DNA of 46,929 bases, the filler included, from Streblomastix strix (lineage: Eukaryota), in the NCBI GenBank assembly GCA_008636045.1. It is 2 parts of 2 records of this genome, joined end to end, with 100 filler letters (N's around TTAATTAATTAA, not from the genome) between each part and the next. Parts side by side here need not be neighbours in the genome. Positions count along the whole stretch, not along the records: positions 23,530 to 46,929 come from SNRW01000286.1; 1 more part is not named here. One strand, given 5' to 3'. Below, one piece after another: positions 20,136 through 44,461 of the stretch. Below the pieces are notes generated by a model that was not told the origin of the DNA, made no database searches, and saw only the letters and a program-made list of their open reading frames with translations. How positions within the stretch are numbered: the stretch's first letter is position 1; the number at the start of each line of letters is the position of its first letter. The position numbers were made by a program, and so were the translations under genes.

Positions 20136-20157
20136 AAAATTTATCTTGATGGGTCTA

Positions 20158-21819
20158 TTAAATATAAGGGCTGCATCACAGACAACAAATTTATTCACGC
20201 TATTTGTAACCATAATCTTCGCAGCTAATGACTACAACAGCAAAGGTTCAATTCATCAATATGATGGGTAAATGATATGTGCAATTTTGCATAAATGACT
20301 ATGACACAAATGTATGCATTAATCATCAAAAATAACAATTTGAATTAATAATCAAAAATTATTCAAAAATATTCAAAATTACTAATGTGAATAGTATATA
20401 GCACTATTTACATCACAAATATTTATATTTATTGACAAAATGTTGTGGGATTGCGTGTGAAAATAATATGAAATAAATTACTAAAATTTTTCAAATAATT
20501 TCAAGCGTATGTATTCATTATGTTTTAATAATTAAAAATATAATAGACAAAATTAATATACATTCATTCAAAATTTTCATTAATTCTTTCAGACTAATCG
20601 CTTAACTAATTGATATTTTAGAGTAGTAATTCAGGTTATTTACATCAACATTTACGGTTATTGCATGCATGAATATAACTTTGTCTTCGAAGGAATGCAA
20701 ATTATGGTATTCTCATGTATTTGTTTAAAGTGAATGTTGGTACATCAGATAATGATTCAAAATTCTTTTTAATAAATTAAATCATTTCTTTAGGAAATTT
20801 GATTGATTGTATATATATTAGTAATGACCTCAATTCTTAAGATATTTATTAAAAAATAAAAAATACAGAAAAACGACTAAGCATAAAATTGCCTTTTTTA
20901 ATGTATATAAATGGCAGATAATTATAAAATGAATAAAACGTTGAGTTAAAATATACTAGATTATTTATATGTAATATATCTACCCAATCATACAACAGTT
21001 TAAATAAGAAGTATGTTAACTACTGAATTGTAATGGTTAAATTAACAAAGTCATATAACTGTAACATCTGAAATAGACACATTTGTAAATCAAATTATTG
21101 CTGAAAGATTTAACTAACAGTAATAACATTAATTGATATAAATTGAATTATAGTAATAACTACAACAATAACCAATAACAAATATTAAATTTTAATTGTT
21201 GAAAATTAATGAACAACTTTAACAATTAACATAAACCTAACCATAATTAACCAAAAATGTTGATGAAATTTAAACTGAATTAAATTAATCTGATAATACT
21301 GATGAAAAAGGAATATTAGACCTTGTTAAACACAAAGTTAATTACAAATAAAAATTTTATGAAAGTGGAAGAAGATAACGTGTATAATAATTATTACAAA
21401 TTATACAATAAATTACAAATTAGATACGTTAGTTATAAATTTTGTTAAAAACAATAAATGACATATTAAGAGAAAAATTTGATTTGAATGACGATGATCA
21501 ATAACTAAAAGAAATTAAAATAAATTATGAATAACTATTAATTGAACAATAATTAAAATATTAATAGGAGTTAGATCAATAAGATCAGTTACATCAATAA
21601 GAGATGCAAGATTTGAAACAAAAATTAGAGAAATAGAATAAAGCGGCTATATAAATACGAAAGTTTTATCGAAGATGTATCGCATAGTAACAATTACGAT
21701 AATCAATTAATGCAACAAAAATAAATAAGAACAAATGGAAGAAATATAAACTAAGTCAATAATTATAATAGATAATCATCAATTCGAGATACAAGAGACA
21801 AGGTGAAAAATCATTTAAG
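20158..21819 (+). mobile_element. Truncated, diverged relative of the 7-kb pPolB-only element (one TIR + upstream region + 5' part of the ORF)
   Basis: 20160-20320 resembles the TIR (ctgcatcac..gctatttgta.cataatct..caattcatcaat..ctatgacacaaatg). 20400-20900 aligns by eye to the reverse complement of 36710-35460, and the ORF aligns to the N-terminus of 35458(-). Confidence 0.85.
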
Positions 21820-21843
21820 AAAACTGAATAACTTTATTAATGA
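20911..21843 (+). pseudogene. N-terminal fragment of the pPolB polyprotein (Gln-rich coiled coil, degenerate IQ-like motifs)
   Basis: MADNYKMNKTLSQNILDYL.. versus MTEKYRMNKQLIQNLLDQL..; similarity ends at KRQGEKSFK. Confidence 0.8.
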
Positions 21844-23429: not shown

Positions 23430-23529
23430 NNNNNNNNNNNNNNNNNNNNNNNNNNNNNNNNNNNNNNNNNNNNTTAATTAATTAANNNNNNNNNNNNNNN
23501 NNNNNNNNNNNNNNNNNNNNNNNNNNNNN
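23430..23529. other. Artificial assembly gap/linker (N44-TTAATTAATTAA-N44)
   Basis: Exactly 100 nt, with an all-frame TAA spacer in the middle of the Ns. Confidence 0.95.
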
Positions 23530-23539
23530 TCTACGAATA

Positions 23540-23962
23540 TGTCTTAATTTTATCCTTGTAATCGTCGATTTGATTTTCTGTTAAGAATAATTAACAATTA
23601 TCTATCTATACTAATTCATAATCACCATCTGGAATATTACCTGTGAATGCCACCTCCACCAATTCTATGCACTATACATGATACTTTCTGGCTATTTGGA
23701 CCTGCTAACGGAGGTACATGTGTTTATGATGTTAATAACACATTTGATGAAGTGATAAGTTAAATTGAAGGATGAAGTAATTATTAATTATTTTTTATTT
23801 AATCTAAAAATGGATTATAAAATAGTACATACGAATGGTGAGGGTGAGGTGGCATTCACAGGTAATATTCCAGATGGTGATTATGAATTAGTATAGATAG
23901 ATAATTGTTAATTATTCTTAACAGAAAATCAAATCGACGATTACAAGGATAAAATTAAGACA
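23540..23962. repeat. Perfect 117-bp inverted duplication next to the gap (23540-23656 versus 23846-23962)
   Basis: Identical reverse-complement copies; the junction lies at a ccacctc(c)acc microhomology. Confidence 0.9.
23650..23775 (+). pseudogene. C-terminal fragment of putative major capsid protein (copy 1)
   Basis: PPPPILCTIHDTFWLFGPANGGTCVYD..*, homologous to 27986-28254. The capsid identity is inferred from gene context. Confidence 0.4.
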
Positions 23963-24097
23963 GTTAACGACAAAGTCAAATACATTAAATAAATGAAACA
24001 ACTTAGTAATGATTAATGTAAGATACATAATACAAAGGTAGCATAGGAGCTTGAAAAAGATAGATATCTATAATATGAAATTGAGAATGATTTATGA
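23810..24097 (+). CDS. Small element protein X (95 aa), unknown function
   Basis: MDYKIVHTNGEGEVAFTGNIPDGDYELVQID..; a paralogous fragment lies at 26991. Confidence 0.65.
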
Positions 24098-24148
24098 TTT
24101 ATACTCTTTGAGTCTAAGAATCTTTGATTATTATTTTTGCAATATAAA

Positions 24149-24520
24149 ATGATCTCATAACCTAACAGAAAACGAATGATATTAACTTAAAACCCAACTG
24201 TACAAATAGATGAAGGAATCAATCAATTTCAATTACCAGTAGAATTTGTCACATCAAAAAATAATAGAGAAATAATATTTGTATAGTGTAGAACAAATAA
24301 ACAGTTAATTGGTTAAGATCTTTATTTATACGCTTCATTTGTGTAAGAGGATTAGGATAATGATTAGTATGTAGCTAGATGTGATGAAAAATGCACAGAC
24401 AAACACTTTCTTCAATTAAATCATGATAAAAGCGTATAATTTTTGTTTAAGAATATTGATGGCGAGTTAGTTGATCAAAATAACATATCATTTATACTTG
24501 AAATCTATTTAATATTTTGA
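24149..24520 (+). CDS. Putative minor capsid (penton-like, beta-rich) protein, 123 aa
   Basis: Alternating hydrophobic strands and the C-terminal pattern VQFLFKNIDGELVDQNNISFILEIYLIF, reminiscent of Polinton minor capsid proteins; homolog at 28286. Confidence 0.5.
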
Positions 24521-24549
24521 TTAAACATTGTGATTTTGTTTCAAATAAA

Positions 24550-24942
24550 ATGAGTCGAGTAATATTTGACAGCAAATAGAGGATAGTTAATAAATTCAAT
24601 AATGAACATTAGTTCGCTGGCATCAATTCAAATAATCTACCGTAATTGAAGATATTAGAGAAGTATTCACCTGAGCTAGTGACATTTGATACAGTTGATG
24701 AGTTCAAATAGTATCTTGTATTGAATAAGGAATCAATGGACTAAATGACTACACAAAAATTAAATAAGACATTTAAAGTCAAAGGGTATTGTATAACTAA
24801 GCTATAAGGAATGATTTCTTTGAGAAAATGTCACTCAAGCAATGAAAAAATAGATTCACTTTAGACAAATAATGATTAACTGGATAAGTTAATTAGTGTA
24901 TTAATTGATAAGGAGATTATTTCAATTGATGAAATTTCATGA
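24550..24942 (+). CDS. Conserved element protein Y (130 aa)
   Basis: MSRVIFDSK..LPQLKI..TFDTVDEF..NKESMDQMTTQKLNKTFKVKGY; homolog at 29714. Confidence 0.75.
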
Positions 24943-25722
24943 ATCTAGTATCTTTATTTTTGTTCCATCATTGCTGTATTATACTATTAATGCCTATCTC
25001 TTCGTTAAATTTGTATACTACTCCCATACTTTATCCTTATCGAATGGTATAGAAGATTAATAATAAAATAAGTTAAATTTCTAACGATTGAATCCACCGA
25101 AGAAGTATATTATATCAACATTAGCTTTTATACTTGCATCAGGACCTATTATATCTTATAAGCATAGAAAATAAGTGATTCTTGGCTATCTGTTCTTGAA
25201 TAGCTTTTTGAATAATGGTAATTACTTATTCTTAAATACTGACATCGCGTCATCAAATAGAACTAGTGTATGAGGATATTTCATTTTAAAATTCTCTGCT
25301 CAAATAGTAGAAAGGATATCCTACTTAGAATCCGACGTAAGTTAATTTATTAGATGTTTCTCAACAACACTATCATATGCTGCTTTTGCTTCAATTAGAT
25401 CATTAAGTACACTATCAATTTCACCGTAGGTAACAATCTTTGTTGGAATAGTGATTAATGTGCTCATCTTCTTATATGTTTAATCATTATTGCTATCAGT
25501 AACATATATAAATAACGTATAACAATTCTTAACCTAACTCAATTTGATTAATTCCTTAAATACATTGTATGACTTATCACTTCCTCTCTATCCTATAAGT
25601 AAGTTAATAGAATTATATGTAAAGTTAATTTCCTTGTGAACTATGCTTTATACCTCATGTTTATTAGTGACTTAAGTATCTAGTAATTCATTTACATATT
25701 GCGTTAGTGAATGATTTGACAT
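24937..25722 (-). CDS. A32/FtsK-HerA-type genome packaging ATPase (copy 1)
   Basis: Walker A LLIGQRGSDKS (G to D variant), Walker B HTLVLFDD, then KNRQPRITYFLCLQ; open for 262 codons. Confidence 0.8.
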
Positions 25723-25785
25723 TTATTTACAGTTGAAACTAATGATTGATAAGTAGCTAATTATCTATTTTTTTGCTTAAACTAA

Positions 25786-26964
25786 ATGAGTGAACAAACT
25801 TAATAAAGTGGATCTTCATAACAAACAGTAACAGATAAATTAGGATATGTCTCCCGAACCAGACCAAGAGTTTAAGAAACAGATTACTATGAAAATAAGG
25901 GAATAGTGTTACCATATGAAACATATCAAAAGACAATTGGACGATAATTAACATTAAATTAAGAGCTTAAAGATAATAAAGATTACTAAAGGGTTAGAGA
26001 ATAATCATTAGCTAAGAGAAATGAACTTCTAGCAAAGTCAAGATAGTAATCATATGCTCCACTAATGGACTTGATTGGGAGGAATAAAGATATTCAATTC
26101 AAGAAAATATGGTCAAATTAGCCATCATTTGAAGAATGGAAGAAGAGTAGAACAAATCCCAGATAAAAGAAATGGGCCGGAACAGTAGAAGATATTAACG
26201 GTGATTAGATTCCTGAGTTTGTTGTTCGTGATGATAGAGGATTTATTCAATCAGCTGATGGACTTAGAATTACAGTTCCAATTAAGCGTTAAAGAGTAAC
26301 TAAATATTTCAGTCAAAATCCAACTAAAGAAGCCCGTTAAGAGAAGCATTATAAAGCATGGAAAGAAGAAGATAAACCAACTGATGGTTATAGACATTTC
26401 ATCAAACACTATCTATCCCCATTCCTTAAAGAGCGTGGCTATACTGTAGCTTAAGTATATTCAGTCATTGGAGGAAGAATATGGAAAGGAGTTATTGCTC
26501 CATGGGTATTGTAATATTATGATAAATCATATTAAGCATAATTATTTATTAGAGGTGATGCTACTTCACTAGCGATATATAAGAAATTGAGTAAAGCAAT
26601 AAAATAGGCATATAGTCAATATTTCATTACTGGTAAATCTTAATAAAGAGATAATTAAATGATGAGACTGATATAAATAGGTTATGCGGCATTTTGGAAT
26701 AGTCAATTAGGTGAAATTCCTGATGATACAAATGATGATGGAGATGACATATTTAATATTCCAACAGAATAAGCTATTAAAGAGGCAAAATAGAGAAGAG
26801 ATGAGAAGAGATAAAGAGAATAGAGATAATATGAAACGGATATGGCAAAAATAAAAGCAAGGATAAAGCCAACATTTAGTGAAGGGAAGACTGTAGAAAG
26901 TGCTAGATTGGCACCGTATGACTTTGAAAATGATTTAGATGATTATGTTATTGAAAGTCAGTGA
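25786..26964 (+). CDS. Element protein Z (392 aa), unknown function, contains a DxNGDxxPE loop
   Basis: Open frame ATG..TGA with TAR=Gln; EDINGDQIPEFVVRDDRG. Confidence 0.7.
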
Positions 26965-26990: not shown

Positions 26991-27133
26991 ATGAAATTAA
27001 TAAGCTGGAATCTTGTTCACATAGATAAATAAGGTAGGGTTGAATGTATTGGTAACATCTCTTCCGATAATTTCAATGAAATATAGATATCAAAGTACTG
27101 CTTACTTTTAAGATAAGATTAATTAGAAGAATA
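26991..27133 (+). pseudogene. 5' half of a protein X paralog, cut by the MITE
   Basis: WNLVHIDKQGRVECIGNISSDNFNEIQI versus YKIVHTNGEGEVAFTGNIPDGDYELVQI. Confidence 0.6.
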
Positions 27134-27983
27134 CAGGGTGGGGAATAATTCCATGGCCGAAGTTCAGAACAGCGCAGGTATATCTATGAATAATTTAATA
27201 TAAATATATATATGATACATTGTATTATAGACATTTTTAAACAAAACATAAATTTCATACTCATAGGGGTTTGTATGGATTTTTATGATCTTTAGTTTTA
27301 TACTCATGAAAAAAAATTTTAAAATTATATGCTGCTCCAAATTTTGAGAACTTTTATATCTGATATATATATATGTACTACATATACATATATGTACATA
27401 ATAAAAATATAATAAAATAAAATCAGACACTTCTCAAGAAAATAAATTTTTCAATTTTTCTTAAAATATTTTGATAGAAAATATTTAGTTTTTTTTGTTT
27501 AAATATTTTTTGCACTAGTCATATTTCAAAAATATATATTTTTTAATATTAATTATTTTCATTAAAATATAATACTCAAAAATTAATCAAAATTCATTTC
27601 AAATTAAAAAAATTAAAACTAAAAAATTATTAATTTTCTAACTAAATTATTTGAGAAAAATTGAAAAATTTATTTTCTTGAGAAGTGTCTGATTTTATTT
27701 TATTATATTTTTATTATGTACATATATGTATATGTAGTACATATATATAGATCAGATATAAAAGTTCTCAAAATTTGGAGCAGCATATAATTTTAAATTT
27801 TTTTTTCATGAGTATAAAACTAAAGATCATAAAAATCCATACCAATCCCTAAGAGTATGAAATTTATGTTTTGTTTAAAAATGTCTATAACACAATGTAT
27901 TATATATATAAATTTATATTAAATTATTCATAGATATACCTGTGCTGTTCAGAACTTCGGCCATGGAATTATTCCCCATCCTG
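27134..27983. mobile_element. Young Tc1/mariner-type MITE, 850 bp, ~330-bp near-perfect TIRs, flanked by TA
   Basis: TA|CAGGGTGGGGAATAATTCCATGGCCGAAGTTC ... GAACTTCGGCCATGGAATTATTCCCCATCCTG|TA; non-coding AT-rich core. Confidence 0.92.
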
Positions 27984-27985
27984 TA

Positions 27986-28254
27986 TAATGTGAACGCAAT
28001 AGCAATGGTACATTAACATTTGATGGATTAGATTCTAAGAACTAGAATACAGCAATTGAACTAAAAGGACTACCACTTTTCAGTAGAGAAGTAAGTACTT
28101 ATTATAATGTTGATACTATTGGAAAACATCCACCTCCTCCGATTCTGTGCGCAGTTCACGATACTTTCTGGCTCTTTAGCTCTAGAGATGGAGGATCTTG
28201 CTTATATGATACAATACATTCATTTGATTAGGTTATTAACTAGGTTACTGCTTA
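27986..28254 (+). pseudogene. C-terminal fragment of putative major capsid protein (copy 2)
   Basis: CERNSNGTLTFDGLD..IELKG.P..HPPPPILCAVHDTFWLF..GGSCLYD, lying upstream of the candidate minor capsid gene. Confidence 0.45.
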
Positions 28255-28285
28255 AATATCAATAGAACATTATTTATGTAATAAA

Positions 28286-28660
28286 ATGCTATTAGATATG
28301 ACTTCAGCTCCAAATATAAAGCGCTTCATAATAATATAGGATGATTGTACGTATGTAGAAGGAATGTTTAGGATATAGTTACCTTATGATTTTGTTAACT
28401 CAAATAATTAGCGAAAAAAAAATATTCTTATAATTTAAGATTCTTAATGTTACTGGTGAGCACTCTATTGATTCAACACTAGTATAAGAAGAATAATATT
28501 ATGATAATTTTGTAGATTTTTGTAATGAAACGAGAACAATTACTGAAGTTTAATAAATGAAGCATTAGCCAAGTATGTTGATTTGGTTCAAAAATAATAT
28601 GAATTAGAATTTATCATAAACGGATATAAAATTTGTTCTTGAATTAATGCATAAATATTA
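28286..28660 (+). pseudogene. Putative minor capsid protein copy 2, frameshifted
   Basis: SAPNIKRFIIIQ..IQLPYDFVNSNNQR..VQEEQYYDNFV.FCNE..IWFKN..KFVLEL aligns to the 24149 ORF; frameshift at the A-run near 28420. Confidence 0.55.
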
Positions 28661-28839
28661 ATTGTTATTATTTTTAAATAATCGAGGAGGGAATATTCTC
28701 CCTCAACTTTTGTGTAGATTTGTGTTTGAATTATCGTAACACTTCGATGGTTCAGATATGAGTCGACAATTATTTTTAACCAATAATTAATAATCGTTCG
28801 TCTCAATTTACTAATCCAACTTTTTTTAGTAATCAGAAA

Positions 28840-29687
28840 ATGACATCGGAAACCCCTTCAACCCATTAAATAGGCTCTAATAACGAAAATTACACAATTA
28901 GTTCTTACAATGGTTTCGAAATAATGATATGTGATAGTGACGGCTTTGTTAATGCAACTATGTTAGTTCAATAGATTAATGAAGGAGAATAAACTAGAAA
29001 ATAATTAACTAACATTACACGTTCACCTGTCTTTGTAGAATACAATTAATATCTAGAATAATCTATTCTCTTTAATTTGAAGGGACCTCTTTGTTACTTA
29101 CTTTCAACTACATTTATGAATGATATTAGAAGAACACACGTTCATAAGTAATTATTGAATATTATTTGCATAAAATCATCAGTTAAATACTTGCATCATG
29201 TTATAACAATAATGGACAAAATTAATAAAACAACAATTGCAGAACATGAAGCAGAAAAAATATAAGCAATAGCAGATAAATTTCACAGAATAATGAATAC
29301 AGTTACTGATACGCTATCTAATCGAATGACAGAATTGAATTCAGATGTAAAATCATTAATTCCAAGGGCTGTTTTAAAAAGTAAAAAAAAAGCTTTTGCT
29401 TGATAGTTGAAGAGGTTCATTAATATGATGATTAAACAAAGATATAAATAAGACGAAAAATGAAGAAAGCTATTAGTAAAGGATTAATGGAATGCTAAAA
29501 ACATGATACATTATTGTTCATCGACAATTTGCCAATAGCTATAACAATTAATGAAGTCATTAAAGAACAGCTATCAAATAGAGGTGGAAAGAAGATAAAA
29601 GCAACAAAATATACATTTCCATATGACTAATTAGATGATATAATCGAACGAATTAAATAGATAGTAATTGAAATCTAAGATGTATGA
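28840..29687 (+). pseudogene. KilA-N domain protein, frameshifted
   Basis: YNGFEIMICDSDGFVNATML..RRTHVHKQLL..SSVKY; frameshift at the A-run near 29390. Confidence 0.75.
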
Positions 29688-29713
29688 GTTTAATTTATAT
29701 TTATTTAATTGAA

Positions 29714-30046
29714 ATGTCTCGTATACTATTCGATAGTAAGCTAGTTAAGAACCATAAGTCTTAAGACAAAATATAACCATTACCTGAACTAAAAATAATC
29801 AATAAAACTGATGTTCAACCATTAACGTTTTATTCGACTGATGAATTCCATTAATATTATGCAGCTAATAAAGAATCCATTGATAAGATGCCAACTATAA
29901 ATTTAAATAATCAGTATAAAATAGAAGGACATATCCTCACAAAACAGAATGAATAAATAGCATTGAAATAAGCAAAACATAAGTAATCTGAACAAATTGA
30001 ACTGGCCAATCTATAAGAATAAATCAAATAAATTAATGCAAAATGA
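29714..30046 (+). CDS. Conserved element protein Y, copy 2
   Basis: MSRILFDSK..LPELKI..TFYSTDEF..NKESIDKMPTINLNNQYKIEGH. Confidence 0.7.
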
Positions 30047-30127
30047 ACATATTTAATTAGCTTTTTTGAATAAAAATAACAATCAACTTCATTTGAAGGT
30101 GATGAGTACGTTCAATAGAATCATATT

Positions 30128-30348
30128 AATAATATATATGGACTGCATCACAATGCACTAATTCTGCCGCGCTATTTGTACTCATAATCTCCGCGCCAAA
30201 TGACTTTTACAACTAAGGCTCAATTCACCAATGTGATGTACAAATGATATAGACAATTCTAAGCAAACACCTATGACTCAAATGACCACAATTCATCAAT
30301 GTGAAGTGTAAATGGTGTGGATAATTCTATTCAAATGTCTATGACACA
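30128..30348 (+). repeat. Left TIR (221 bp) with 68-bp internal tandem subrepeats
   Basis: aataatatatatggactgcatcacaatgcactaattctgccgcg...; subrepeats start at 30221 and 30289 (caattca.caatgtga.gt..aaatg). Confidence 0.92.
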
Positions 30349-30370
30349 TTCATCATCAAAAACAGTAACA

Positions 30371-33300
30371 TCATTAATCAATTAAGTAGTGGTCTGCATT
30401 AACACCATACATAAATGGTGCACAACATCCATTGGCTAATACAACCATCTTATTATGAATTCCTGTAAGTGCTGATTTTTCTGTACTAATCATTGACATA
30501 AATCCCATTTTCATTTATAAATTATTAGTTATCACATTGATGTTACATCCTTCATTCAAACATTTAATGTAGTCATTAGTTGTTAAATTAGCCTTCTTTT
30601 CACTTACTCCTTTCATCCGATTCACTAATGAAACTATGTCTTCATTTTGTTCGTTTCCATTGTATAGACTATAACATTTAGGTGCGAGACAAACGATATT
30701 TTCGCCCTATGATTCGGTAGTGATACCCATTAATTTCTTCTCTTCAGCGACAGTACAATTGTCCCATGGAAGCCACTCTTTATAATGCAGGTCATAGAAC
30801 CCCTAGTCTTTGATTACGTACTTCAATCCTTACTTATAACCTTCTATTTTTGATCCTGCAATAGCTAAATACATTGAGTCAGTATCCATATTACAGAAGT
30901 GAACTCTATCCATATCAATACATTTATAAAGGAAGTTCTATACAAAATTTAGATACCAAAACTTGCTATTGTCTAATGTAAATACCGCTTCTTGAAGAGG
31001 CTCATTACACTTAAATTTTCTAGGTGACTCACTAACCATATATTAAGCTTCTTCAATAACTTCACCATCAGAATCCAATCTATCATCACTCAATTTCCTT
31101 GTTGCCTTATGATCCAATTTCAATTATTTGAGTGATGTCTATCGAGCATTGTTAAATGATATCTTATCAAATTTAGCATTATTTTATCCTTCTCCTCCAA
31201 AAGCACTATTCAGAATTTGCTTGTAGTATAGCGATTTCGTGTCATTGTGTTGGCTAATTGCATCCTATCTCTTAGCCATCATTGTACAGGCAAAAGATTC
31301 AAAACCTAGGTGTTTATCGAATAGTGCAATTGAATCAATGTCATCAACAACAAAGTTGCAATAGTCAATCAAAAACCATAAAATGTAACTAGTAAAACAC
31401 ATGAATTGATTGTGTGTTGATAGCAATGCTGTTAGTTTTGTTGTAGGTTTGTCAACAGTTAATCGCTGTGATTTCATCTTATTGTACATAAATTCTCCTA
31501 TCTATTCAACCGAATTATTATACGTTAACTTCCTCCATATAGGTGCTAAATTTATGTGTGAGTTAATATGTTTTTCATCATTATGCCCCTTAATTGTAAC
31601 ACAGAATAGCTACCCTTTGTCATTAAATCTATCATCACTCATAATTATATTTCGAGCTTTCTATTTTGAATTATTAGATGCGCATTTGAAATAACTAGTT
31701 AATCCACCAGCTTGATAAATTCGATGATTTGTATAAGGGTTATTTTTGTTGAAGATACCACTAAACATACTTGAATAGAGTGAGTTGAAATCTAAATCAA
31801 GGATATGAGTAACAATATACTAATTATCATATGATGTTATTGTTTTAGCTACTTGATTGTATCTAAGTTTATTAATGTGTGTGACACCTTTCAAATTACA
31901 TTAGTGATACACATTAGATAACTCACCTTACATACACTCCTTTAACATATTATATACTGACTCATTATTAATTGTCATAGGAAGGTGTTCGTAGATAGCA
32001 TATTTCATTAACTGTATCTTTAATTTACTAATATCATTATCTTTATCAGCCTTAACTGTGTTACATATTTAACAAGCTAGTTAACAATTCTATTTTGTAT
32101 GGCTAATTGAATTATCAATTCTATCTAATGTAGGCTTGTTTTCTTTAGTGAATTTGTTATGACATAGATGACATGTTTCATTAACTACTTTATCTCTAAT
32201 CCATTCAAAATCATCTTCAGTAACATTATTAGTTGTATCCCTCTTAGCAAACACATCTTTATTAATATATCCTTTGACTTTGTTATTCCACCAGTATTAA
32301 GTGACTTCGAATTATTCAAATCCATTAACTATATTATAACTCGCATTGATATCGAATTTTCCATAACAATACTTGTATTTAATTTAACTAGCAATTTGAG
32401 CTAGTGATATACATCCTAACATATCGACTTTCTCCTCCTATGTAATTTGAATAAAATGATTGATTGGGTTGATCATACATGTAACGTCCCTGATATTATA
32501 GTGCTTTAAATACTCCCATCTACTTTCAAAATTGATTGAATCATTACAATATTGTTCATAATCTTCGTCACTAATATTCTTATTATTAAGTTTGTCATAG
32601 AAATCATCCTTAGTGAATGGAGTTGTTAGTCCTAGGACAAATTTATAGTTATCATAATTGAATGAACCATGTGGAAATATACCCTTTGTTAATATTATAC
32701 CTTTAGTTCCAAATTTCTCAACGAATTGTTTTAATGTGTTGTTTGGTGGAATGAATGATAATATATCAATAAATCTCAAGTCAAAATCATAATCCTAATG
32801 TGATACAATTGTCTATTTAGCTTAAGTTGTTGATCCCATGTATTAAATTTTAGTCTTATTTTTAATTAGATGTTTGAGTAACAAATTCATATCAAATTTC
32901 TTAGAATTGAATCCTATAACTGACACTTGAGGCTTATATGGAATATAGTTCTTGTCATTGATTTATACTTCTGGTATGTTCGATTAATTAGCTTCGTTAA
33001 CAGTAACGGCAACTTCAAACAATTAACTTATCCATTATTCAATAAAATCAGTTCCGTCTCGTAAATCAAAATATAACGTAGTAATAATACCATTTATTGT
33101 TGCTGCTGACGCTACAGATAACGGTTCTAATTAAGCAATTATATTATCTTCATTAATTATGTTCTCTACTGTCTCTAAATCAAATGTAATGTAATTAAGT
33201 GTAGGTGCTAACTAATCTTATTAGCCTGTTGCTACTAATTTCTAGAGTAACTTATTATTTGATATATGTGGATAATAAGGCTTCGGTTAGTGATCTAATT

Positions 33301-35458
33301 TAACTTATTTAACTGTCTCAGGACCCTAACAATATTTCAAATGCCTAGCTAAATCACGCTTATAATTTTATTTCTTAGTATTAAATATCATCTAACAATT
33401 GTTAGGACAGAGCTTTCCATTAATCACTTTATCAATATCACTAATATACATTGCATGAATTTCATCAACTAATGACAACGAAACTAATAATACATTAACA
33501 GTTTGATAGTCCTTATCGATAATATGTTCATCAAATTTGTTAAATTATTCGACATCACTACGATTGATTTTATGTTTCATCTCATCACATGAGTATGCAA
33601 TTACATTTAGCTTGAATAGTTATTGATATCGTTCAAGATCAGTTACATAATTGAAACCTTTATATGATTCGAGTAATTATTTATTAGACTTATTTAATCT
33701 CTAGCTTGGGTTAATGTCATGGTATTAGAGAAACAGTTTAATAGCATCACTAACTCTAGTTCTTGTTTAATCAATATCAGAATGTAAGGCAAATGATGCG
33801 GCTATAAACCAACAAATATTGTAGTCACATTCTACATCCCTAGTAATACCTTCTTTATTGAAGTGCTAACATATTTTATCCATTTTAGTACCTAATGGCA
33901 GTCTATAAACAACAATCAAAAACGTATATAGTGCTACCTTTAATGTTGCTGAATCTTCATGTGTTGTGTCTTAATAATCGGATAGCATATCAACAGCTTT
34001 CTATTTGAAATAGTCATTAGTTTGTTTATCTCGAACAACTGTGTTAGATAACGTCTTATAACTATCATCAGCACTTGGTCCTGTGTGAGAGTAATGATAT
34101 TCATCTAATGTTTGTTAGTGCTTATATACCTATTTCTTTTTCTACCAGATAGATCCAAAACTAATATATACTTTATATGGCTTAGCTTTCTCTAACTCAT
34201 ACACCTAATCAATTTTATCTTTCAGTTGCTATAAGTCATAGAAATGATTGTAATAGTATTAGATATATGGTTCTTTATTGAGTATATCTTTTGACTTCAT
34301 TAATTCATCAGATAGTCCTTCAATATTAACTTCATTCTTTTCTTAGAATTTCTATCGTGCCTGAGCTAATGCAGCATAATAAGATGATAAATTCTATGGT
34401 GTGAAGATAGCGAATGCTTTCTAATTAAGTTCTCTATTTTTATTTAATTATTGCGTTTATGTTATACTTGGTTCACTAAAATGATCCTTATATAATCCAT
34501 AATATGATTCATTAAGCTTTTTAACCCTTCTATTGAATTCTTTAGCTCCTAATTTTGCTTCTAAATAGCTAAGAATTTTAAATGGCTTTTCACCCTATCG
34601 CTTATATCGTTAATTAATGATTACCTATTCTAATTATTCGTATAGCTTATGCCTTCGCCATTTGCCTTAAATCACTTTAGCAGCATTTACTGACTATTTC
34701 ATTAGTTGCTCTGCTAAATGTCTTCGATAATGCTTTTGGATTAGTACAGCTGCTTTATTCTATTTCTCTATTCTATCCTTCAATTCTTGTATCTCTTTTT
34801 AATGTAATTGTTCTTATTAATCTAATTCTTATTAATGCTTCAATTATTGTTCAGCTAACAACTGTTTATAATTTTCATTAATCTCAATTGGCTATTGAAT
34901 CTAATCATCCAAATCAAATTCTTCTCTTAATATATCATTTATTGTTTATAGTGACTCTTGTAGCTAATGTATCTAATTAGTGATTTATTGCTATGTTTGT
35001 AACAATTATTTCATACGCTATCTTCGACCACTTTCATCAAATTTTTATTTGTAATTAACTCTGTATTTATCAGGATTGAATAGACCATCATCAGTATTAT
35101 CAGATTAGTCCAATTCATTTATGATTTCATCAATATTTTTGACTAATTGTGGTTATTGTTCATCATTATTCAACTATTATTACTATTCATCAACTATTTC
35201 TATTAATGGTTGCAATTAGGGTTATTCAACTTATTCCAGCTATTGTTATTATTATCCATTTCTTTCAGCAACAATTTAATTTACAAAAGCTACAATTTCA
35301 GTTGTAATAGTTATTTGACCTGTATAATTCAAATGAATCAATTCATTAGTTAACATATTTCTTAATTCAACTGATGTATAATTAGGTAAATATTGAACTT
35401 ATAATTAATCTAATAGGTTTTAAATCAATTATTTATTCATTCTGTATTTCTCTGTCAT
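30371..35458 (-). CDS. Protein-primed family B DNA polymerase polyprotein, ~1,695 aa, apparently intact
   Basis: ExoI YITFDLET, ExoII GFNSKKFD, KGIFPH, ExoIII HYNIRDV, PolA LDFNSLYSS, PolB KQILNSAFG, PolC MDTDS, LAPKCY, KGV. ATG-to-TGA span is 1696 codons, and ORF-track pieces 32438-32779 and 31265-31489 are in the same frame. Confidence 0.9.
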
Positions 35459-36901
35459 TTGTGTGCGGGAAAAAAAAAGTCAATTTATTACTTTACCATT
35501 TTTCTGTATTTTTTATTTTATAATAAATGACATAAGAATTGAAGTCGCTATTAGTATAAATTCTACAAATCAAAACACCTAAAGAAATGCGTTAATTTGT
35601 AAAAAAGAATCATGATTTGCTATCACATGCTACAACATTCACTTTAAATAGATATATGGCAATACCACATTTTAGATTTCTTCGAAGGCATGACTATATT
35701 CATGTATATTGTGACCGTAAATGTAGATCTAGTTAACCTGAATTATTGCCTAAAAATATCAATTAGTTCAGTGATTAGTCAGAAAGTATTAATGAAAATT
35801 CTGATAGCAACTCCATTAAAGTCCGAATTATATTTTCGTTAATTTGTTAATTTCATATGCATTTCAGTGAAAATCGAAAATTATTCAATAAATATAAATA
35901 TTATTTGTATATTAATAAATAAAAAACAAAAATAAACAACATGAATATAATATTTATAACAATGTATTCATTTAAATATTAATAACTGAACCAATAATCA
36001 ACAGATTATTTGTAAAAAATTTTAATAAAAAATTAAACGGGACAAAATTGCAATATTAACTAAATGTTTGAGTTCTATATAAAATAAAAATAAATTGTTG
36101 GATAAAAATTCAGAAAATTAGCTTTTATATCGGTGTATTTGGTAAAAAATTAAGAAAATAAAAATGTAAAAAAACTTTCCTTGAGTCCTGTTACATTCAA
36201 CCTGCAATTTGAATAAAATTGTGAATAAAATTTAAATAAAGCGCAAATAATTAATAAAATATATTATACTTCAAACGTTTTGCATTTACAGGCGAGTATG
36301 TACAAATCAATCTTGCACTTCGCTTCTTTCTCGACCAATACAATGATTTTCCTATCTTTTGGCAAAAAACCATAATAAATAAATGAAATTAAAAATATAA
36401 ATATGTAATATATAATATCGAAACTTATTTGCAAAGTTAATTTTTTATTAAAATAAACATATTAACAAATTAACGAAAATTCAATTCCGACTGTAGTGAT
36501 ATAAATGCTAATGCTTCACAATCTGACTCGCCTATCAGTTGATTATATATTATTTTTATCTATAATATTTTTAATTATTGATACATAAAGTATACCCATA
36601 TTTGAAATTATTTGAAAATTTTTAGTAATTTATTTCATACTATTTTAACACACAACCCTACAACACTATGATAATTACTATATATATTAGTGATGTAAGT
36701 AGTGATATAGACTAAATATATATAGTAATTGATATAATTAGTCTATTAGTTAGTTAAGAAATTAATAGTCAAAATTGTTAAATTTTTTCATAAATTTTGA
36801 AAATTAGACGTTTATTATTCAAATAATTTTGAACATTTTTGAACATTTTTCAAATATTAATCCATATCATTTGCACATCACATTGCTGAATTGTGCTCAT
36901 T

Positions 36902-37122
36902 TGTGTCATAGACATTTGAATAGAATTATCCACACCATTTACACTTCACATTGATGAATTGTGGTCATTTGAGTCATAGGTGTTTGCTTAGAATTGTCTG
37001 TATCATTTGTACATCACATTGGTGAATTGAGCCTTAGTTGTAAAAGTCATTTGGCGCGGAGATTATGAGTACAAATAGCGCGGCAGAATTAGTGCATTGT
37101 GGTGCAGTCCATATATATTATT
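36902..37122 (-). repeat. Right TIR (221 bp); an extra partial 68-bp subrepeat extends inward to ~36860
   Basis: Reverse complement of 30128-30348. Confidence 0.92.
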
Positions 37123-37895
37123 CATATTATTCGTACAATTGTTCCATCATTATTATACTGCACCAGTAATGCTTCTCGTTTGTCTAATTATTCATATTTA
37201 TTCCATAATGTTTCTATATCTAACGGAATGCTTGAATAGTAGAAGAATAAATTGAATTTTTATCTACTAAATCTACAAAAAAAAGTATATTATATCAACA
37301 TTAGATTTAATGCTAGCGTCTAAACCAATTATATCTTGCAAACATAAGATTTATATGATTCTTGGCTATCTATTTTTGAATAGTTTCTTATATATAATGG
37401 ATTGTTTTTATTCTTGGAGATACATATTGCATCATACGGCACTATTGTATGTGGAAACTTGATAGAAAAGTCCTTTGCTCCAATTTGAGATAATATGTCT
37501 TTTTTAGATTCTTCTTTCATTTATTTTTCTAATTTCTTTTCCATAACTTCATAATAAGCTTGTTTACATTTAATCAATTAATTTAATGCTTCATTCACTT
37601 CTGCATACGGAACTAATTTTGTAGAAATATTTATTAAATCTTTCATTTTCTTATAAGTTATATCATTAATGCTATCAGTAACATACACAAATAGTGTGTA
37701 ACATTTATTAGGCAATTAGCTTAATTTGATTAGCTCTTTGAATACATTATATGACTTACCGCTTCTACGTTAACTTATAAGTTGATTGATAGAATTATAT
37801 GAGAAATTAAGTTACTTATGAATCATTGATTCTATTTCATATTTATTAGTTTTCTATTTAATAAGCAATTGATCTACATATGCGTTAAGAGACAT
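37122..37895 (-). pseudogene. Packaging ATPase copy 2, frameshifted
   Basis: NSINQLISQRRSGKSYNV, FVYVTDS, FPHTIV; frameshifts near 37390 and 37280 relative to copy 1. Confidence 0.8.
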
Positions 37896-37946
37896 TTGTT
37901 TGTTATTAGCTATTTCATTCACTTATGAACGTTTTTTAATTAACAA

Positions 37947-39231
37947 ATGAGCGCAGAAGAGTTAAATTCTGAAATTGGAGATATCTGAATAATTGCACGA
38001 GATAATAATGAATTCACTAATGAGTTACGTAATGCGTAGGATTTTATACAAAATTATCATAAACACAAAGGTCGTAAAAGTAAAGCAGAAAAATTAGATA
38101 TATTGAATTAAACAAATATTGCATTTCGAAGAATATAATAAAAATACTAGAACTCAATATAATAGATTACTCATAATCTTTTGTAAACTTATATTGCTAG
38201 TTAACTTTAAACAATTACTTAAAATCCATTAGTATAATTATAATTGCATTAATAATCAACATAATAACCAACATAATAACCAAGAGAATAAGCGATTGAA
38301 TAAATACAAATACAAACTTTTGTCTAAAACCAAAACATGGCTTAGGTATAACAATTGAGTTTCTCAAAATGGCAAGAGAAAAAATAGGCACCATTAAGTG
38401 ATGAAGTTTAAACCAAAAAGAATACATAAAAATAGAGATTTGCAGCAGGTCGTGGATTTCTTGGTGAAATATTTGATGCATGATAATTAAATGCGCTAGT
38501 AGCAACATTAGCTACAAAGAAAATCCACCACAAAGATATAAAATACAATAAAGAATTGAAAACCATGCCATCAGGAGAACGATATATTGCTTCTCATAAA
38601 GTAATGAAAGGATATTCAATGAAAATGGTTGATCCAGATAGTGAAGATCCACTACCTGAGTTCTCTACCGTATTCAATAAAAATGTTAGAAATTTATGCT
38701 ATTGGTGGTTATATTCGAAAAGATGAAGGTAGATATGATGAATATTAAGAATAAAACATTAATGATATTCCAATAGACTAGCGTAAAAATATAAAATTCA
38801 TTGATTGCATGGAAGGAAAATAAGTACGAACAGGAAAATAACATAAAGATAGTACTTATAATCTGTAATAAAATTCACAATTAGTTCTCAGAAATCATTT
38901 CTTAGATAAATATGTTCCAATCATTGCAGAAGAATATAAAACAACTAATCAAATAGAAAAATGGGGTAAAGGAGAGTACATTTCTGCAGCGTCTACAGCT
39001 TGGAAAGAAGTATAGAGAGGATTAATGGAAGAAATAGACCCAGCATATGATTGGACTGGAGCTAATGATGAAGAATTAAAATAAGCTGCAAGTCAAATCA
39101 AGAAATAAATTAGAAATTTTTATTTCGCTAATATTGTAGAAGATGAAGATGGGTTCGTAAGATTAATGGATTAAGTGCATAAGTAAGTATCAACTAATGT
39201 AATTGCTTAAGCTATAAGAAAATAAGCGTGA
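37947..39231 (+). pseudogene. Degenerate gene in the position of protein Z
   Basis: Divergent from the ATPase like Z; Gln-rich N-terminus, DPDSEDPLPEF loop, in-frame TGA and frameshifts. Confidence 0.45.
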
Positions 39232-39294
39232 AGAGCTATAGAAGTTGATTGAGAATGAGTATGCATATGATAATTTTATTTTTGAATTAACAAA

Positions 39295-42200
39295 ATTACA
39301 CGAACAAAGATATCAATTGCAGACGTTAATCAGCTTCTCCAATTATACGATCCAAATGCAAAAATAAATGTGAATGATAAGTAAAAAGAGATCAAATTTA
39401 AATTCAACTCTAACAAAGATCGGATTCTATGGCTAACGCAATAACGTTAAAGCTGTGGAATAAGCGATAAATGCAGTAGTTTCACGTAATATCTATATGA
39501 AACAATCCAAAGCAGCAACTGTTATATAATAATGTGTTCGAAAGTGGTTCAATTAACGGGAATAATAACGGTTAACACGAGAATAATAGATATAAATGGA
39601 ATAAGAATAATTAGAAGAATAACGAGAATTAGATATAAAAGAATTAAGAGGAGTTAGATCCAAAATTATTAGATGAAGATGGTGTATTCGATCCAGAAAG
39701 ATATAGATAATAGTAGCATTAATTAAGAGCATAAGACATAGAAGAATGTAGGAGAAAATAACAGGAAGATAGATAAGCAAGATAAGCATAATTATTGGAT
39801 GAATTTCATAATGTAGAGTATATGAACATTGATGTACTATTCGAAACAGATTAATAAAAAATTAGCGAATACATTAGAACTCATGAAAAATATGTGTTTC
39901 ATCATCTAAATACAAATAGTGATGTGATTATGCTATGTGACGTATAGAATGAAGTGTAATTCAATAGGAATAAGAACATTGCATTAAATCAATATAATAA
40001 AGAAACTGGTGCTCTTTCATAAAAATCTTATAATTTATCTTCAATTAATTAAATGAAACCGACTAAATAATATTATATTAATATTGCTTCATAAGCAGAT
40101 TTAAATAAGCTCTTAGACTCCGTATACAATAAAGAAAAAGGTAATATGTTTAAATTAGCCGTTGATTTTGGAGTGCTAATTGAACGTGTTGATGGTAATG
40201 CAGAAGCATAGACAGTTAAATACAAATATATCCTTCCAGTAGATGCAAATTCAGAAAAATGACCACCATTAGAGATACGATTTAGAGATAACATTAATAT
40301 GTACTAGTAGTATCTTCGAACAGTTATTGAAAGCATATAAGAGAGAACTAATGCAGATTTTTATGAAAAAATAGTATCAATATTCTCAATAATGCTTTTT
40401 GTATTTCGATATCCACTAGCAGGTGCAGCTATTCCTTCATTAAAGTAGCATATTAAACGAAAAGAGATTTATTATGTTGATTATAATGTAAATTTATGTT
40501 TTTGGACAGCATATTCATTCATCACAATGCCTAATTCAAAGGATAAACGTTGGAAAAAGTGTTCAAGAATCGCTGAAACTAAGCGTATATTTTCAAGAGT
40601 AAATGGATTGGAGTTTCGAGATAATTATTAAGGATTCGATTTCGTATGAGATATTGATAACGGCATTAATAAAGAATACATCAATGTGCACATGTAAACA
40701 TTTGAAGATAATCCACCATATTATGAACTTACATAAAATTATCTAGTTAATGATTCGGACAAGTAGTTCAATATCCTATTCATTAATGATGGAATAAACG
40801 CTCATATTATATATATCTGATGTTGAAGCACTAACTGGATTCCGTTACTGTAATATATGTCATAAATAAGCATTCCAATTAGGTGATTCAAATCTATAAT
40901 AATTAATGAGAAATCATATGAAAAAATGTCAAAAGATTGGTGGAAAAATCGTGAAGAAAGTAATCTTGGAAAGATTCTCGAAACCGTTTGCTCCTCATAT
41001 TTTATCTAACAAGACTTATAAGTAACTATTAGCGAATAATTTAACTCATTTGTTCAAACCTACACGATATTACATAATATATGATATCGAAACATTAGAA
41101 AAGAAAGTTAATGAAACATTTTGTGTTAGTTCATAAGTTACTACAACTCTAATTCCATACGCTATTGCATCAACTGTCAAATTAGCTAGTGGTATCCATT
41201 CAATTTATTACGATTTTCGAACAGAAAATTTCATAAGAAAGTGGTAAGAGTAAATATTTGATGAAGCGAAATTAATTAGGTAAGATAATAAATTTATAGA
41301 TGAAACAATCCCATAATATTATGAAGTACCTGTAATTGGGTTCAACTCAGCAAAATTTGATGCATCTATTCTATTCAAGAATTTGAAATCAAAAGACTGG
41401 GCTATCTCAAAGTATTTAGGTTCAAGTACAATAGCAAAATAGATAGTTGTCAAGCATTAGTCTTCAAGAATTCAATTAGGATTCGTTGATTTAAGATATA
41501 TTCTATGCAATATAAGTTAAAGGATGCTTTGAGATATTTTGGGAATGGATAGTATAATAAAGGTCGTTTTCCTCATGAATTTATAAACATTAATAATTAT
41601 ATAAGGGAATTGAATAAATGTGAACCATTTCCGATCGAAGCATTCGATAACACAATACGAAATAAGAAGCTTAGTGAAGTAAAGTACAAAGACTACCTAG
41701 TCGAAGCAGCTAAACACAAATCACGATGCGATTATTTGAAGCATTATAATATATTAGATACTAGAGTTCTTATTGAACCAATAGATTATTTGATTAAATT
41801 AATGTTTAAATATAAAGTGGACTTGTTAGCCATTATATCTATGTCTTAATGCTCCAATGCAATCAAATATTCTATGGCACATAACGACATTGATATCAAT
41901 GATAATTATAATTATGAAAGCACAGATAAATTAATCGAAATTACATAGTGTTATTTGAGAGCAAAACTGGATAGTTATATTGAATAAGTTAATAAGACAG
42001 GTAGAGATTCATGCAATAATGTAACGATTGACGATTATGATTATTTTAAAGAATTATTCAAGAATTAACGATATAATATGTGTAATGCACGATTCATATG
42101 GAAGAATAGGCCCACATTAGATATAATTGATATTAGTAAAAGACACTCAAAAGATAATGTGATTCCATACTGTTTGTATTGTAATGTATGCAGAGCAAAT

Positions 42201-43795
42201 CGTGATAAAAAAAATGAAATTAATGGTATAGTTAAAGAAATATGCGTTATTTAAACAATTACTCATGACATTAATGAGTGATGCAGGATATCAATTATTG
42301 CGTAAAGGTATTACTGGAGGCATATCAAATGTGATGAATAGATATAATATTGCAGGAGAAACGAGAATTATTCTTTTCGAATTTAATTAAAAAAATAAAT
42401 GTCTGTATTCATTAGATTCAGATTATGTGATGACTCATGTAGTTTAGTTAGATTTTCATAGCTAATATCCAAGTGTTATAAGCGGTGAACCGAATGAGTT
42501 AAATCCATACACTACTCATATGATATATATGTTTGCTTAACTTATTGAAAAAATTAATGATTAAGATCGATGCAAAACACCAATATATGATAAAAATAGA
42601 TTCTCTGAAGATCCATTAGTAGTCGATAAAATGTTAATATTTGTAGCTGAGACTATGGGTCACATTGATGAGAAATATTTGAATGGAGATATTAATTGGG
42701 GCCCAATTCTGAGAAATATTGATATCATAACTAATATAGAAACAATAGGATAATTTATATATAATTATCTAGTTAATAGCTAACTTCTGCATGATAAAAC
42801 TGAATGTAAATTAAAAAACTTAGAGGACAACAATAATGACATAATGTCATTCAATAATTACTATTTATAGCTACTAATTGATATATGTCATCTTGTAATT
42901 GATGAGATTGTTAGTGTTACTACATTTACGAAACATACAAATTTCAATTTATTAGTGAAGGAATTTATGAATCTTTGAAAGCAGGCGAAAGATGCTAAAA
43001 ATGAAGGATTAGGATAATTCTGTAAATTAATATTGAATTCAGCATTTGGAGATGATTGTTTGAATAGTGAAAAATATTCAAATACAAGATTACTTTCTGC
43101 AAATAAGACATTCATATAGCATATGAAGGGCAGATTCATTCATTCGACTGAATTAAATGAAGATCTATACGCTGTGTAAGTGGGTAGGGAAAACTATCGT
43201 TGCAATACTTGTTTATAAGTAGCTTATTTTTGTATTAGATTCTGCAAAATTTTGGTACATTAATTATATATATAATTTTATGCACAAATCATATGATATG
43301 AATAGGATGCACTTTGTACAAGGAGATACTAATTCATTAACTTGGACAATTAGTGGAAATATAAATCGTGGTCCAGAACTATTATTTGAAGAAGTCATCA
43401 AAAACTAAGGGTTCTTTGACAGATACAAAGATTGTGCGTTTTCGGAGAGTGGAAAGAAATAAATATTTTATATTAGTGTGGAAAAATATGGTTATAATTG
43501 CGTAATTCTATCGCTTAAAAATTATATTATTAATAAAGAGACTGTTTTGAAAGGTGTTATTTTGGATTAGAATCCATAGATTAATGAATAAAGATTTATA
43601 GACTGCATTAACAAAGGAACTATTGCAACAGCTATTAATGCTACATTAGCGTAGATGAAAGATACTATGAGCAGGTTGAAAATGGAAAAAAATGCAATAA
43701 CTTGTTCCCACACAAAAATGATTGTACTACCTAATCAAAGTTGTCTTCCATTTATCAATAATATTAGTGCAGATAGATATGTTATTAAATAATGA
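39295..43795 (+). pseudogene. Decayed protein-primed PolB of Polinton segment B
   Basis: YDIET, GFNSAKFD, KGRFPH, HYNILDT, LDFHSQYPS, KLILNSAFG, GDTNS (motif C mutated), KNY, KGV; multiple in-frame TGA (e.g. ~40260, ~40647, ~42977) and frameshifts; the start codon is apparently lost. Confidence 0.88.
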
Positions 43796-43819
43796 TTATA
43801 GTATTTTTACTTTATCGAA

Positions 43820-44283: not shown

Positions 44284-44302
44284 ATGATTTATTTTTGAAC
44301 TA

Positions 44303-44461
44303 ATGAAAATGCCATTCGAATCATTATTTGAACCATTATCTGTTAACATTACTATTGCAATTGATGCTATTGAATCATTGAACATTGATTGGCACGCTAT
44401 CTTTAAAAGTATTTGGGAAGCAGCAATTAAATATGCTTGCAAGTTAAAGATCTGTCATTGA
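44303..44461 (+). CDS. Small ORF (~52 aa), unknown function
   Basis: ATG..TGA preceded by the same upstream motif as neighbouring genes. Confidence 0.35.
   Translation: MKMPFESLFEPLSVNITIAIDAIESLNIDWHAIFKSIWEAAIKYACKLKICH

Follow-up and report, generated by a model that had tools for sequence, protein, structure and literature searches.

What kind of mobile element keeps a DNA polymerase gene of its own between matched terminal inverted repeats (TIRs), lacks the integration and virion genes of Polintons, and yet lies integrated inside the remains of a Polinton? The question is raised by positions 30128-37122 of a stretch of DNA from Streblomastix strix, an oxymonad protist of the termite gut. 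The whole stretch analysed (46,929 nt, hereafter the window) consists of two contigs joined by an N-linker (23430-23529), and the element lies in the second. The explanation that we favour, and consider fairly probable, is a recent, likely inactivated copy of a likely multi-copy, Polinton-derived TIR element of ~6.3 kb, which carries a protein-primed family B polymerase (pPolB) and one small gene and which likely used the integrase of full-size Polintons in the same cell.

Ends of the element and its insertion site

As an earlier note on this DNA had described, the element is bounded by nearly identical TIRs of 221 nt. They differ by 2 mismatches and are located at 30128-30348 (plus strand) and 36902-37122 (minus strand). 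The left TIR starts with 5'-AATAAT, and a 68-bp tandem unit makes up its inner part. The flanks carry the target-site duplication CATATT at 30122-30127 and 37123-37128 (both plus strand); the 8-bp alternative TCATATTA (30121-30128 on the left), which had been proposed together with it, also fits, and both ends were confirmed. Two random flanking 6-mers would match by chance with p~0.0009. The TIR length lies inside the Polinton range of 100-1500 bp, and the duplication, be it 6 or 8 bp, inside the range of 5-8 bp given in bioRxiv 10.1101/2023.08.22.554363. In L013, a related full Polinton, the ends read AGTAGT and the duplication is 6 bp long, so that we prefer the 6-bp reading here.

The TIRs and the CATATT at both ends bear out that the element is an insertion. 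On its left, host gene Y' (29684-30046, plus strand) terminates 75 nt short of the duplication, and on its right the duplication overlaps the stop codon of a packaging-ATPase remnant (37122-37890, minus strand), which is homologous to the Pox_A32-type ATPases of related loci. The locus at 24.9 kb, taken in the earlier note for an uninterrupted copy of the site, is a paralogue and not an empty allele: identity is 68% between the two ATPases in DNA and 36% between the two Y genes in amino acids. Further host genes are a putative capsid remnant (27992-28207, plus strand), which matches the C-terminus of a gene of ~540 aa in related full Polintons that is taken for a putative major capsid gene from its size and position; the host Polinton's own pPolB (39732-43795, plus strand); and a broken integrase-like remnant (44890-45826, plus strand), assigned to rve by its motifs and by its homologues, whose Pfam match is weak. 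The host polymerase is split over 5 frame segments, inside which 4 stops occur, compared to 0 breaks over 5.1 kb in the element, which agrees with the proposal that the element is younger than its decayed host. No helper Polinton with ends similar to those of the element came to light, and the ends of the host element did not emerge from the window. In a protein search with the packaging ATPase, the best 120 of 134 matches included none from S. strix.

The claim that no integrase, ATPase or capsid gene lies inside 30128-37122 held in tblastn searches with the ORFs of 59 metagenome loci and in a blastx search of 35800-36900, neither of which found such a homologue. Integrase-like queries find the host remnant without any match inside the element, while ATPase and capsid-like queries match its flanks only. 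There is also no RNA polymerase gene in the element, nor room for one.

Could the arrangement be chimeric, with high-copy repeats of amplified single-cell DNA wrongly joined in assembly? A fold-back at the start of the contig (23540-23675 against 23822-23962) and the fact that none of the listed run contigs spans the outer junctions would fit this idea. However, matched TIRs together with a target duplication and an unbroken ORF of 5.1 kb are unlikely to arise from misassembly, and other haplotypes and runs show the internal junctions again, so that we regard a chimera as the least credible of the explanations considered. At the right end, one different flank was seen among the run contigs.

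The polymerase and the small gene

The largest gene is a 1,695-codon ORF at 30371-35458 (minus strand), open when read with translation table 6; stop-free stretches of at least 250 codons number 32 in the window with this table and 0 with table 1. Its N-terminus consists of a coiled/IQ-like extension followed by a putative terminal-protein (TP) region. The vOTU-like residues Cys549 and His668, conserved in 18 and 17 of 19 aligned polymerases, respectively, stand at the expected position; the names TP and vOTU follow motif position and PMC11161782. They are followed by the exonuclease (residues 759-991, with motifs Exo I-III), an HNH-like zinc insert (residues 1096-1133) and the palm motifs A/B/C (residues 1223-1528). 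The catalytic motifs of a protein-primed family B polymerase are thus present, and there is no helicase region.

Pfam reports an IQ match only and no polymerase family for this ORF, and a PDB sequence search returned nothing useful; the identification is based on fold, motifs and named homologues. An AlphaFold model covering residues 680-1695 (pLDDT 92.9; residues 1-679 lie outside it) has phi29 polymerase as its top match in the PDB with an E-value of 6e-16, versus 3e-7 for RNA-primed PolBs, and in BFVD it matches pPolBs of the adintovirus/bidnavirus type. By its predicted fold, the ORF is a protein-primed polymerase. The earlier note had called the gene apparently intact. The frame is indeed open, but the protein carries five private changes (F761L, Q1067K, G1179E, P1229S and Y1507Q) at 246 deeply conserved columns. 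Because G1179E and P1229S affect conserved polymerase residues, the copy in the window is itself probably inactive.

Of the 19 aligned polymerases, 18-19 share the HNH-like residues, which might suggest that this nuclease cuts the target and that host repair makes the duplication, so that the element integrates by itself. We consider this very improbable: full Polintons that have kept an integrase-like gene carry the same domain in their polymerases, and a clean 6-bp duplication is the signature of a Polinton integrase (5-8 bp in bioRxiv 10.1101/2023.08.22.554363).

The description of the element as polymerase-only has to be given up. A second gene of ~93 codons (35527-35805, plus strand; ATG at 35527), distantly paralogous to gene Y of Polintons, stands head-to-head with the polymerase, and its 3' end runs into a nested insertion. 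Fold searches with the small protein gave no match (best E 0.17 in BFVD, best Z 4.1 in VIA); an Atlas query with its L009 homologue pointed to clusters of helix-turn-helix type at values of at most 0.85, which we take as a lead only. A 469-aa ORF at 35206-36615 (plus strand) was rejected as a gene, as it spans polymerase antisense, the small gene and the nested insertion, has no Pfam match and is conserved in its Y-like part only.

The nested insertion (~35806-36539, ends approximate) is non-coding, MITE-like and ~0.73 kb long, with an inner inverted repeat at 35814-35851 and 36461-36498. It is missing from a diverged relative near 20 kb of the window and is skipped by run contigs, which join 35804/5 directly to 36545/7 and thereby display a compact right side. 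Its absence from other copies indicates a unit of ~6.3 kb. As found, the element measures 6,995 nt, of which 1.4 kb is non-polymerase DNA, half of it the secondary insertion. The sub-terminal spacer (36540-36901) is 81% conserved in the 20-kb relative. An Rfam search gave no match.

Relatives, other copies and origin

Among 221 proteins aligning to the element polymerase, 27 are at least 60% identical, and all of them are named S. strix; they reside on 27 contigs, all differing in length, one being the window's own. Members of this clade differ by 9-13% in protein. In a FastTree phylogeny of 49 cores and three separate host-polymerase fragments (L009_3942 was left out as a non-match), which contained neither plasmid nor adenovirus sequences, the S. 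strix element polymerases group in a clade with short branches and a long stem, separate from the host polymerase. As the host fragments fall in two places, we take from the tree only that they are not in the element's clade. Distant relatives (27-42% identical) belong to full Polintons of ~14 kb.

These data also bear on the possibility that a full-size S. strix Polinton, with the same ends and polymerase, gave rise to the element by an internal deletion and that this derivative, defective-interfering-like or simply non-autonomous, was amplified, in which case it would not be a long-lived independent lineage. All close relatives whose context is known are full Polintons: further Polinton genes follow the polymerase in 31 of 36 informative related loci, and none of these loci is a polymerase-only TIR element. 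In L009 and L013 the polymerase lies at one end, so that a single deletion from the polymerase stop to the far TIR would yield the layout of the element, and a related family includes a 6.4-kb TIR-bounded derivative, L054, with a broken polymerase. On the other hand, the deletions in L054 cut the polymerase, whereas that of the element is complete to a stop codon 22 nt from the TIR, an arrangement shared by at least two other haplotypes. Moreover, the host Polinton's polymerase is only 32-36% identical, and the divergence within the clade argues in the same direction. We judge a deletion derivative to be possible, but on the unlikely side.

On the other contig, the diverged relative (20156-21843, plus strand), which is truncated, reads TIR, spacer, Y-like gene and polymerase N-terminus, which is the order of the element at 72-81% DNA identity. 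Its dN/dS is 0.28 for the polymerase N-terminus and 0.39 for the small gene, compared to 0.53-0.70 in three other frames tested. Given the N-linker, it is unlinked to the element. Since the polymerase start likewise adjoins a TIR in the full Polintons L009 and L013, this relative may be one end of a full-size element.

Other copies have compact ends as well. A base differing from that of the window at 30363 is found in 18 contigs of run X1, one of X2 (from another study) and one of X3; these contigs run up to 40 (X1) or 58 (X2) letters to their ends, enough to join TIR and polymerase stop. In another haplotype, 30305-30343 is skipped and the sequence continues for 39 letters. The run contigs are too short for any of them to span the element, which means that no second complete copy was read end to end, and X1 may be the sample behind the window assembly. 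Summed depth is 386 at 30363 versus ~10,000 at the polymerase 3' end, and many polymerase copies might therefore continue into other DNA; this argument is weakened by depth falling to 541 inside the polymerase itself. Scans for the exact TIR pattern in collections of viral, metagenome and prokaryote-genome sequences gave 0 matches each, and a polymerase-alignment scan of viral contigs gave 0 relatives among 599 pattern matches; as these collections probably lack S. strix, the blanks say little.

One might also think of a bipartite Polinton, in which a same-ended partner without polymerase carries integrase and virion genes and each half needs the other. In X1 the depth in the TIR bin is as high as that of the polymerase, which leaves room for extra TIR-bearing elements. 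However, the neighbouring Polinton has its own polymerase, and neither the window nor the three exact-pattern collection scans (probably without host DNA) contained a partner with the same TIRs, which makes this arrangement improbable.

For the favoured Polinton-derived element, the following course can be envisaged. The divergent polymerase and Y-like genes would be transcribed by host RNA polymerase, as suggested by the host genetic code and the lack of an RNA polymerase gene in the element. The polyprotein may serve as its own source of the terminal-protein primer, freed by the vOTU domain, and the polymerase would copy an excised linear molecule from its AATAAT ends; both steps are modelled on PMC11161782 together with the conserved Cys/His pair and the catalytic motifs. 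A Polinton rve integrase would then recognise the ends and insert the molecule by a 6-bp staggered cut. While the duplication is observed at the locus, the enzyme is deduced, and the earlier suggestion of dependence on a Polinton integrase is reasonable on the basis of the 6-bp duplication. Inserted copies would decay and gather MITE-like insertions, as the copy in the window has done.

Two other suggestions fared less well. An origin from linear plasmids finds no support in the closest relatives of known context, which are Polinton polymerases, and the picture of a hyperparasite targeting Polintons comes from a single case (n=1), while the DNA next to the visible end of the 20-kb relative has no Polinton gene match. 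Most simply, landing inside a Polinton was chance in a Polinton-rich genome. A mitochondrial plasmid origin was rejected, as oxymonads are not known to have mitochondria.

Comparison with known systems

With Polintons/Mavericks of the metamonad pPolB group the element shares TIR and duplication lengths, trinucleotide-repeat ends, a Y-family gene and the TP-vOTU-Exo-Palm layout (TP and vOTU being putative here), and its nearest polymerases come from the full ~14-kb elements L009 and L013. It differs in size (6.3-7 kb versus 13-25 kb) and in having no integrase, ATPase, protease or capsid gene, and alone it can neither integrate nor be packaged.

Cytoplasmic linear plasmids of the pGKL type use their own or a helper's RNA polymerase for transcription in the cytoplasm. 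The element lacks RNA polymerase and toxin genes, although a helper plasmid is conceivable, and in contrast to these plasmids it is chromosomal, flanked by a target duplication and written in the host nuclear code. Plasmid sequences were absent from the retrieved polymerase relatives. Transpovirons, ~7 kb in size, parasitise mimivirids and encode a truncated, exonuclease-less pPolB fused to an SF1 helicase, as in the Transpoviron/Tlr1 definition, whereas the element has a full Exo-Palm polymerase and no helicase. Like the element, they are capsid-less, and they are linear and reliant on larger viruses (PMC11161782), as the element, known as an integrated copy, would be. TIRs and a pPolB with fused terminal protein (putative in the element) are common to the element, the pGKL-type plasmids and a capsid-less fungal pPolB lineage (PMC13215967), and fungal cytoplasmic linear plasmids are described as Polinton-derived through loss of the virion module (PMC11161782). 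Ca_PLV1 is likewise integrated without a detectable integrase, and trans-acting integration was proposed for it, but it is described as a capsid-encoding virus, compared to two genes here (PMC11296320). An HNH-like zinc domain between exonuclease and palm also occurs in pPolB2 of oomycete and nematode Polintons, to which 10.1101/2023.08.22.554363 calls the insert unique.

EVEs with capsid genes have been reported in S. strix (PMC10120064). Among what the literature searches listed, no two-gene, pPolB-retaining, duplication-flanked element is described; S. strix elements may be found in the supplement to PMC10120064. A survey that asks for capsid genes or for at least five Polinton genes (PMC10120064; 10.1101/2023.08.22.554363) would by design miss such elements.

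A bolder interpretation would see an old, independent nuclear lineage of "Polinton satellites", free protein-capped two-gene replicons that borrow the integrase, and perhaps the capsids, of Polintons in trans and are intermediate between Polinton and linear plasmid; we put it forward tentatively and doubt it more than we believe it. Usual non-autonomous transposons have lost their enzymes and kept their ends, while here the replication enzyme is whole and the integration and virion genes are lost. If the family is stable, the Polinton life cycle would split into self-supplied copying and borrowed integration, which would be indirect evidence for the presumed free linear Polinton intermediate, and one polyprotein with two ends would offer a minimal replicon in which to test protein-primed replication of Polintons.

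Element ends, polymerase and small gene

The insertion at 30128..37122 is bounded by terminal inverted repeats (TIRs) of 221 nt with 2 mismatches, as claimed in the earlier note, and the claimed flanking duplication, CATATT, stands at both ends; an 8-bp reading fits too. We prefer the 6-bp duplication because the element end then reads AATAAT, resembling the AGTAGT end of L013, a related full element with a 6-bp duplication, and because the other flank (one among the matches listed) likewise comes after ATTATT. The target duplication is overlapped by the stop codon of the host ATPase. The uninterrupted copy at 24.9 kb supports the gene order as had been proposed, but, being a paralogue (68% DNA identity), it does not serve as an empty site. 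The element as observed, with its ends, duplication and polymerase, is real.

The reading frame of the ~1,695-aa pPolB (30371-35458) is indeed open across 1,695 codons and its stop lies 22 nt from the left TIR. The gene had been called apparently intact, yet among 246 deeply conserved columns this copy has 5 private changes, two of which are G1179E and the motif A change P1229S. Changes of this kind number 4-15 in each of 12 family members examined. The copy is young yet probably inactive. The polymerase was recognised neither by Pfam nor by PDB sequence search. A fold model of residues 680-1695, built from an 84-sequence alignment (pLDDT 92.9), has phi29 polymerase as its best PDB structure match (E 6e-16), with RNA-primed PolBs at 3e-7 or worse; adintovirus, bidnavirus and adenovirus pPolBs are among its best viral structure matches. 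Of 19 aligned sequences, 17-19 keep the motifs of exonuclease and palm, the HNH-like zinc insert and, at the position of the vOTU protease, Cys549/His668. These features fit the TP-vOTU-Exo-Palm layout of Polinton polymerases described in PMC11161782, and the element therefore likely encodes its own primer, a predicted terminal protein.

The HNH-like insert (window 32060-32173, minus strand) is present in 19/19 aligned polymerases of the clade, including those of other hosts' full Polintons; such an insert is called unique to oomycete and nematode pPolB2 in 10.1101/2023.08.22.554363. The N-terminal extension holds IQ-like motifs at residues ~235-270 (window 34650-34760, minus strand), with Pfam IQ barely above cut-off; near 39500, upstream of the host polymerase, there is another motif of this type. 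Motif B (residue 1420) reads NSAFG throughout the S. strix family vs NGSYG in other members; the host polymerase has NSAFG as well.

The polymerase-only description did not survive, as a second gene of ~93 codons runs on the plus strand from 35527, 68 nt from the polymerase start. It matches the Y homologue of the metagenome locus L005 (E 8e-5), and profile-profile comparison with Y gave 92.5% (E 5e-7). A Y profile built without the small gene detects the copy in the 20-kb relative, a truncated, diverged copy at 20156..21843 (plus strand), with E 0.0026 among 1,011 segments, and does not report the window's own gene at E<=1. In the relative the frame is kept, the ATG is lost and there is one internal stop; dN/dS between the two is 0.39, vs 0.53-0.70 for three other frames. 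A further S. strix contig carries a third homologue. Fold searches with the small gene gave no match, and weak Atlas leads prompt the guess that its product binds DNA. Because ~35806-36539 is missing from the 20-kb relative and skipped by run contigs, the basic unit is about 6.26 kb.

A probable family of copies in S. strix

The window, whose two contigs are separated by the N-linker at 23430-23529, is readable in genetic code 6 only (stop-free stretches of at least 250 codons: 0 in table 1, 32 in table 6); S. strix endogenous viral elements with this code are reported in PMC10120064. One S. strix protein is 100% identical to the element's polymerase across 1,517 residues, and we therefore take S. 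strix as the host. The second contig begins with an almost perfect fold-back (23540-23675 / 23822-23962) of a kind typical of amplification chimeras. Two fold-back elements are MITE-like (27131-27986 and ~22358-23180), the first with CAGGG ends and TA flanks, directly upstream of a capsid-like remnant.

Among 221 stored proteins aligning to the polymerase, 27 do so at 60% identity or more; all are named S. strix and sit on separate contigs, one being the element's own. Their clade in the tree has short branches and a long stem; its sister is a second S. strix polymerase type (48%), and the host element's polymerase (32-36%) falls outside it. Derivation by deletion from the surrounding Polinton is thereby ruled out.

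Four sequencing runs from three studies were used, X1 possibly being the source sample. All 30 bins are covered in each run at 85% likeness, with no contig spanning the whole stretch among the matches listed. Other haplotypes cover the junction of polymerase stop and TIR in at least 18 contigs of X1 and at least one each of X2 and X3; both X1 and X3 show a second haplotype there. Other contigs link the small gene directly to the right spacer. Depth at the junction of stop and TIR is low relative to the polymerase 3' end, which counts against a compact family.

Related loci and the host Polinton

We examined 67 related loci (polymerase identity 21-42%). Of 36 with at least 1.5 kb past the polymerase end, 31 carry further Polinton-family genes (integrase-, ATPase- or capsid-like in 20) and 5 carry none. 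The ATPases match Pox_A32; the putative integrase is so labelled from its motifs together with a weak match to rve (E 0.064), and the putative capsid is named from size and position. Because related polymerases are mostly accompanied by Polinton genes, the element's polymerase is of Polinton stock.

Could the element be a deletion derivative of a full-size element? No polymerase-only TIR element was found among the related loci checked for inverted repeats. L009 and L013 are elements of ~14.2 kb bounded by TIRs. Their genes correspond to the host remnants in the window, and their polymerase start adjoins a TIR, so the 20-kb relative could be a full-size element's end and the element may be such a derivative.

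In another, standard-code host, three polymerases (L027:4600-4674, L036:2920-3023, L050:1363-1466) are 94-95% identical; their sequences part 5 nt after the polymerase stop, two of them ~35 nt after. There are no Polinton genes downstream and no TIR was found; they are possibly another dispersal of a polymerase alone. In the P0076 cluster, 7/10 members are a 1,143-aa relative on contigs of 3.7-5.6 kb, which is a candidate for a compact or free replicon of a different host. Polinton-type contigs of the clade within bacterial genome bins (L060-L067) are most likely eukaryotic contamination.

Tandem paralogous Polinton blocks (23530-26964 and 27990-46258) repeat X-Y-ATPase at 68% DNA identity, and the second also holds KilA-N (28840-29403) and polymerase and integrase remnants; no outer TIRs were found for either block. 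Both the element copy and the host element show decay. For the proposed targeting of Polintons there is one site; at its visible end the 20-kb relative adjoins a palindromic tract and an ORF not of Polinton type. In the runs, Y and ATPase of the host are themselves present at very high abundance.

Known systems and proposed mechanism

The element differs from autonomous Polintons, among which it cannot be placed, as it holds no integrase or virion genes, in line with the earlier note. From transpovirons it differs by its full exonuclease and the absence of a helicase. In the parts available of each source, fungal linear plasmids are known capsid-less pPolB elements (PMC11161782), a capsid-less fungal pPolB lineage is called likely plasmids (PMC13215967), an integrated PLV without integrase is already known (PMC11296320), and PMC6431247, PMC5718144 and bioRxiv 10.64898/2026.10.13.758929 hold nothing closer. 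Literature searches found no description of a two-gene, duplication-flanked element that retains pPolB.

The ends, duplication, gene content, other copies of the polymerase and of internal junctions, and decay are direct observations, with which we also list the modelled polymerase fold. Beyond these, we propose that the genes would be transcribed by the host, that the excised linear form would be copied by protein-primed synthesis, and that a Polinton integrase would insert it in trans; taken jointly, we consider these steps moderately probable.
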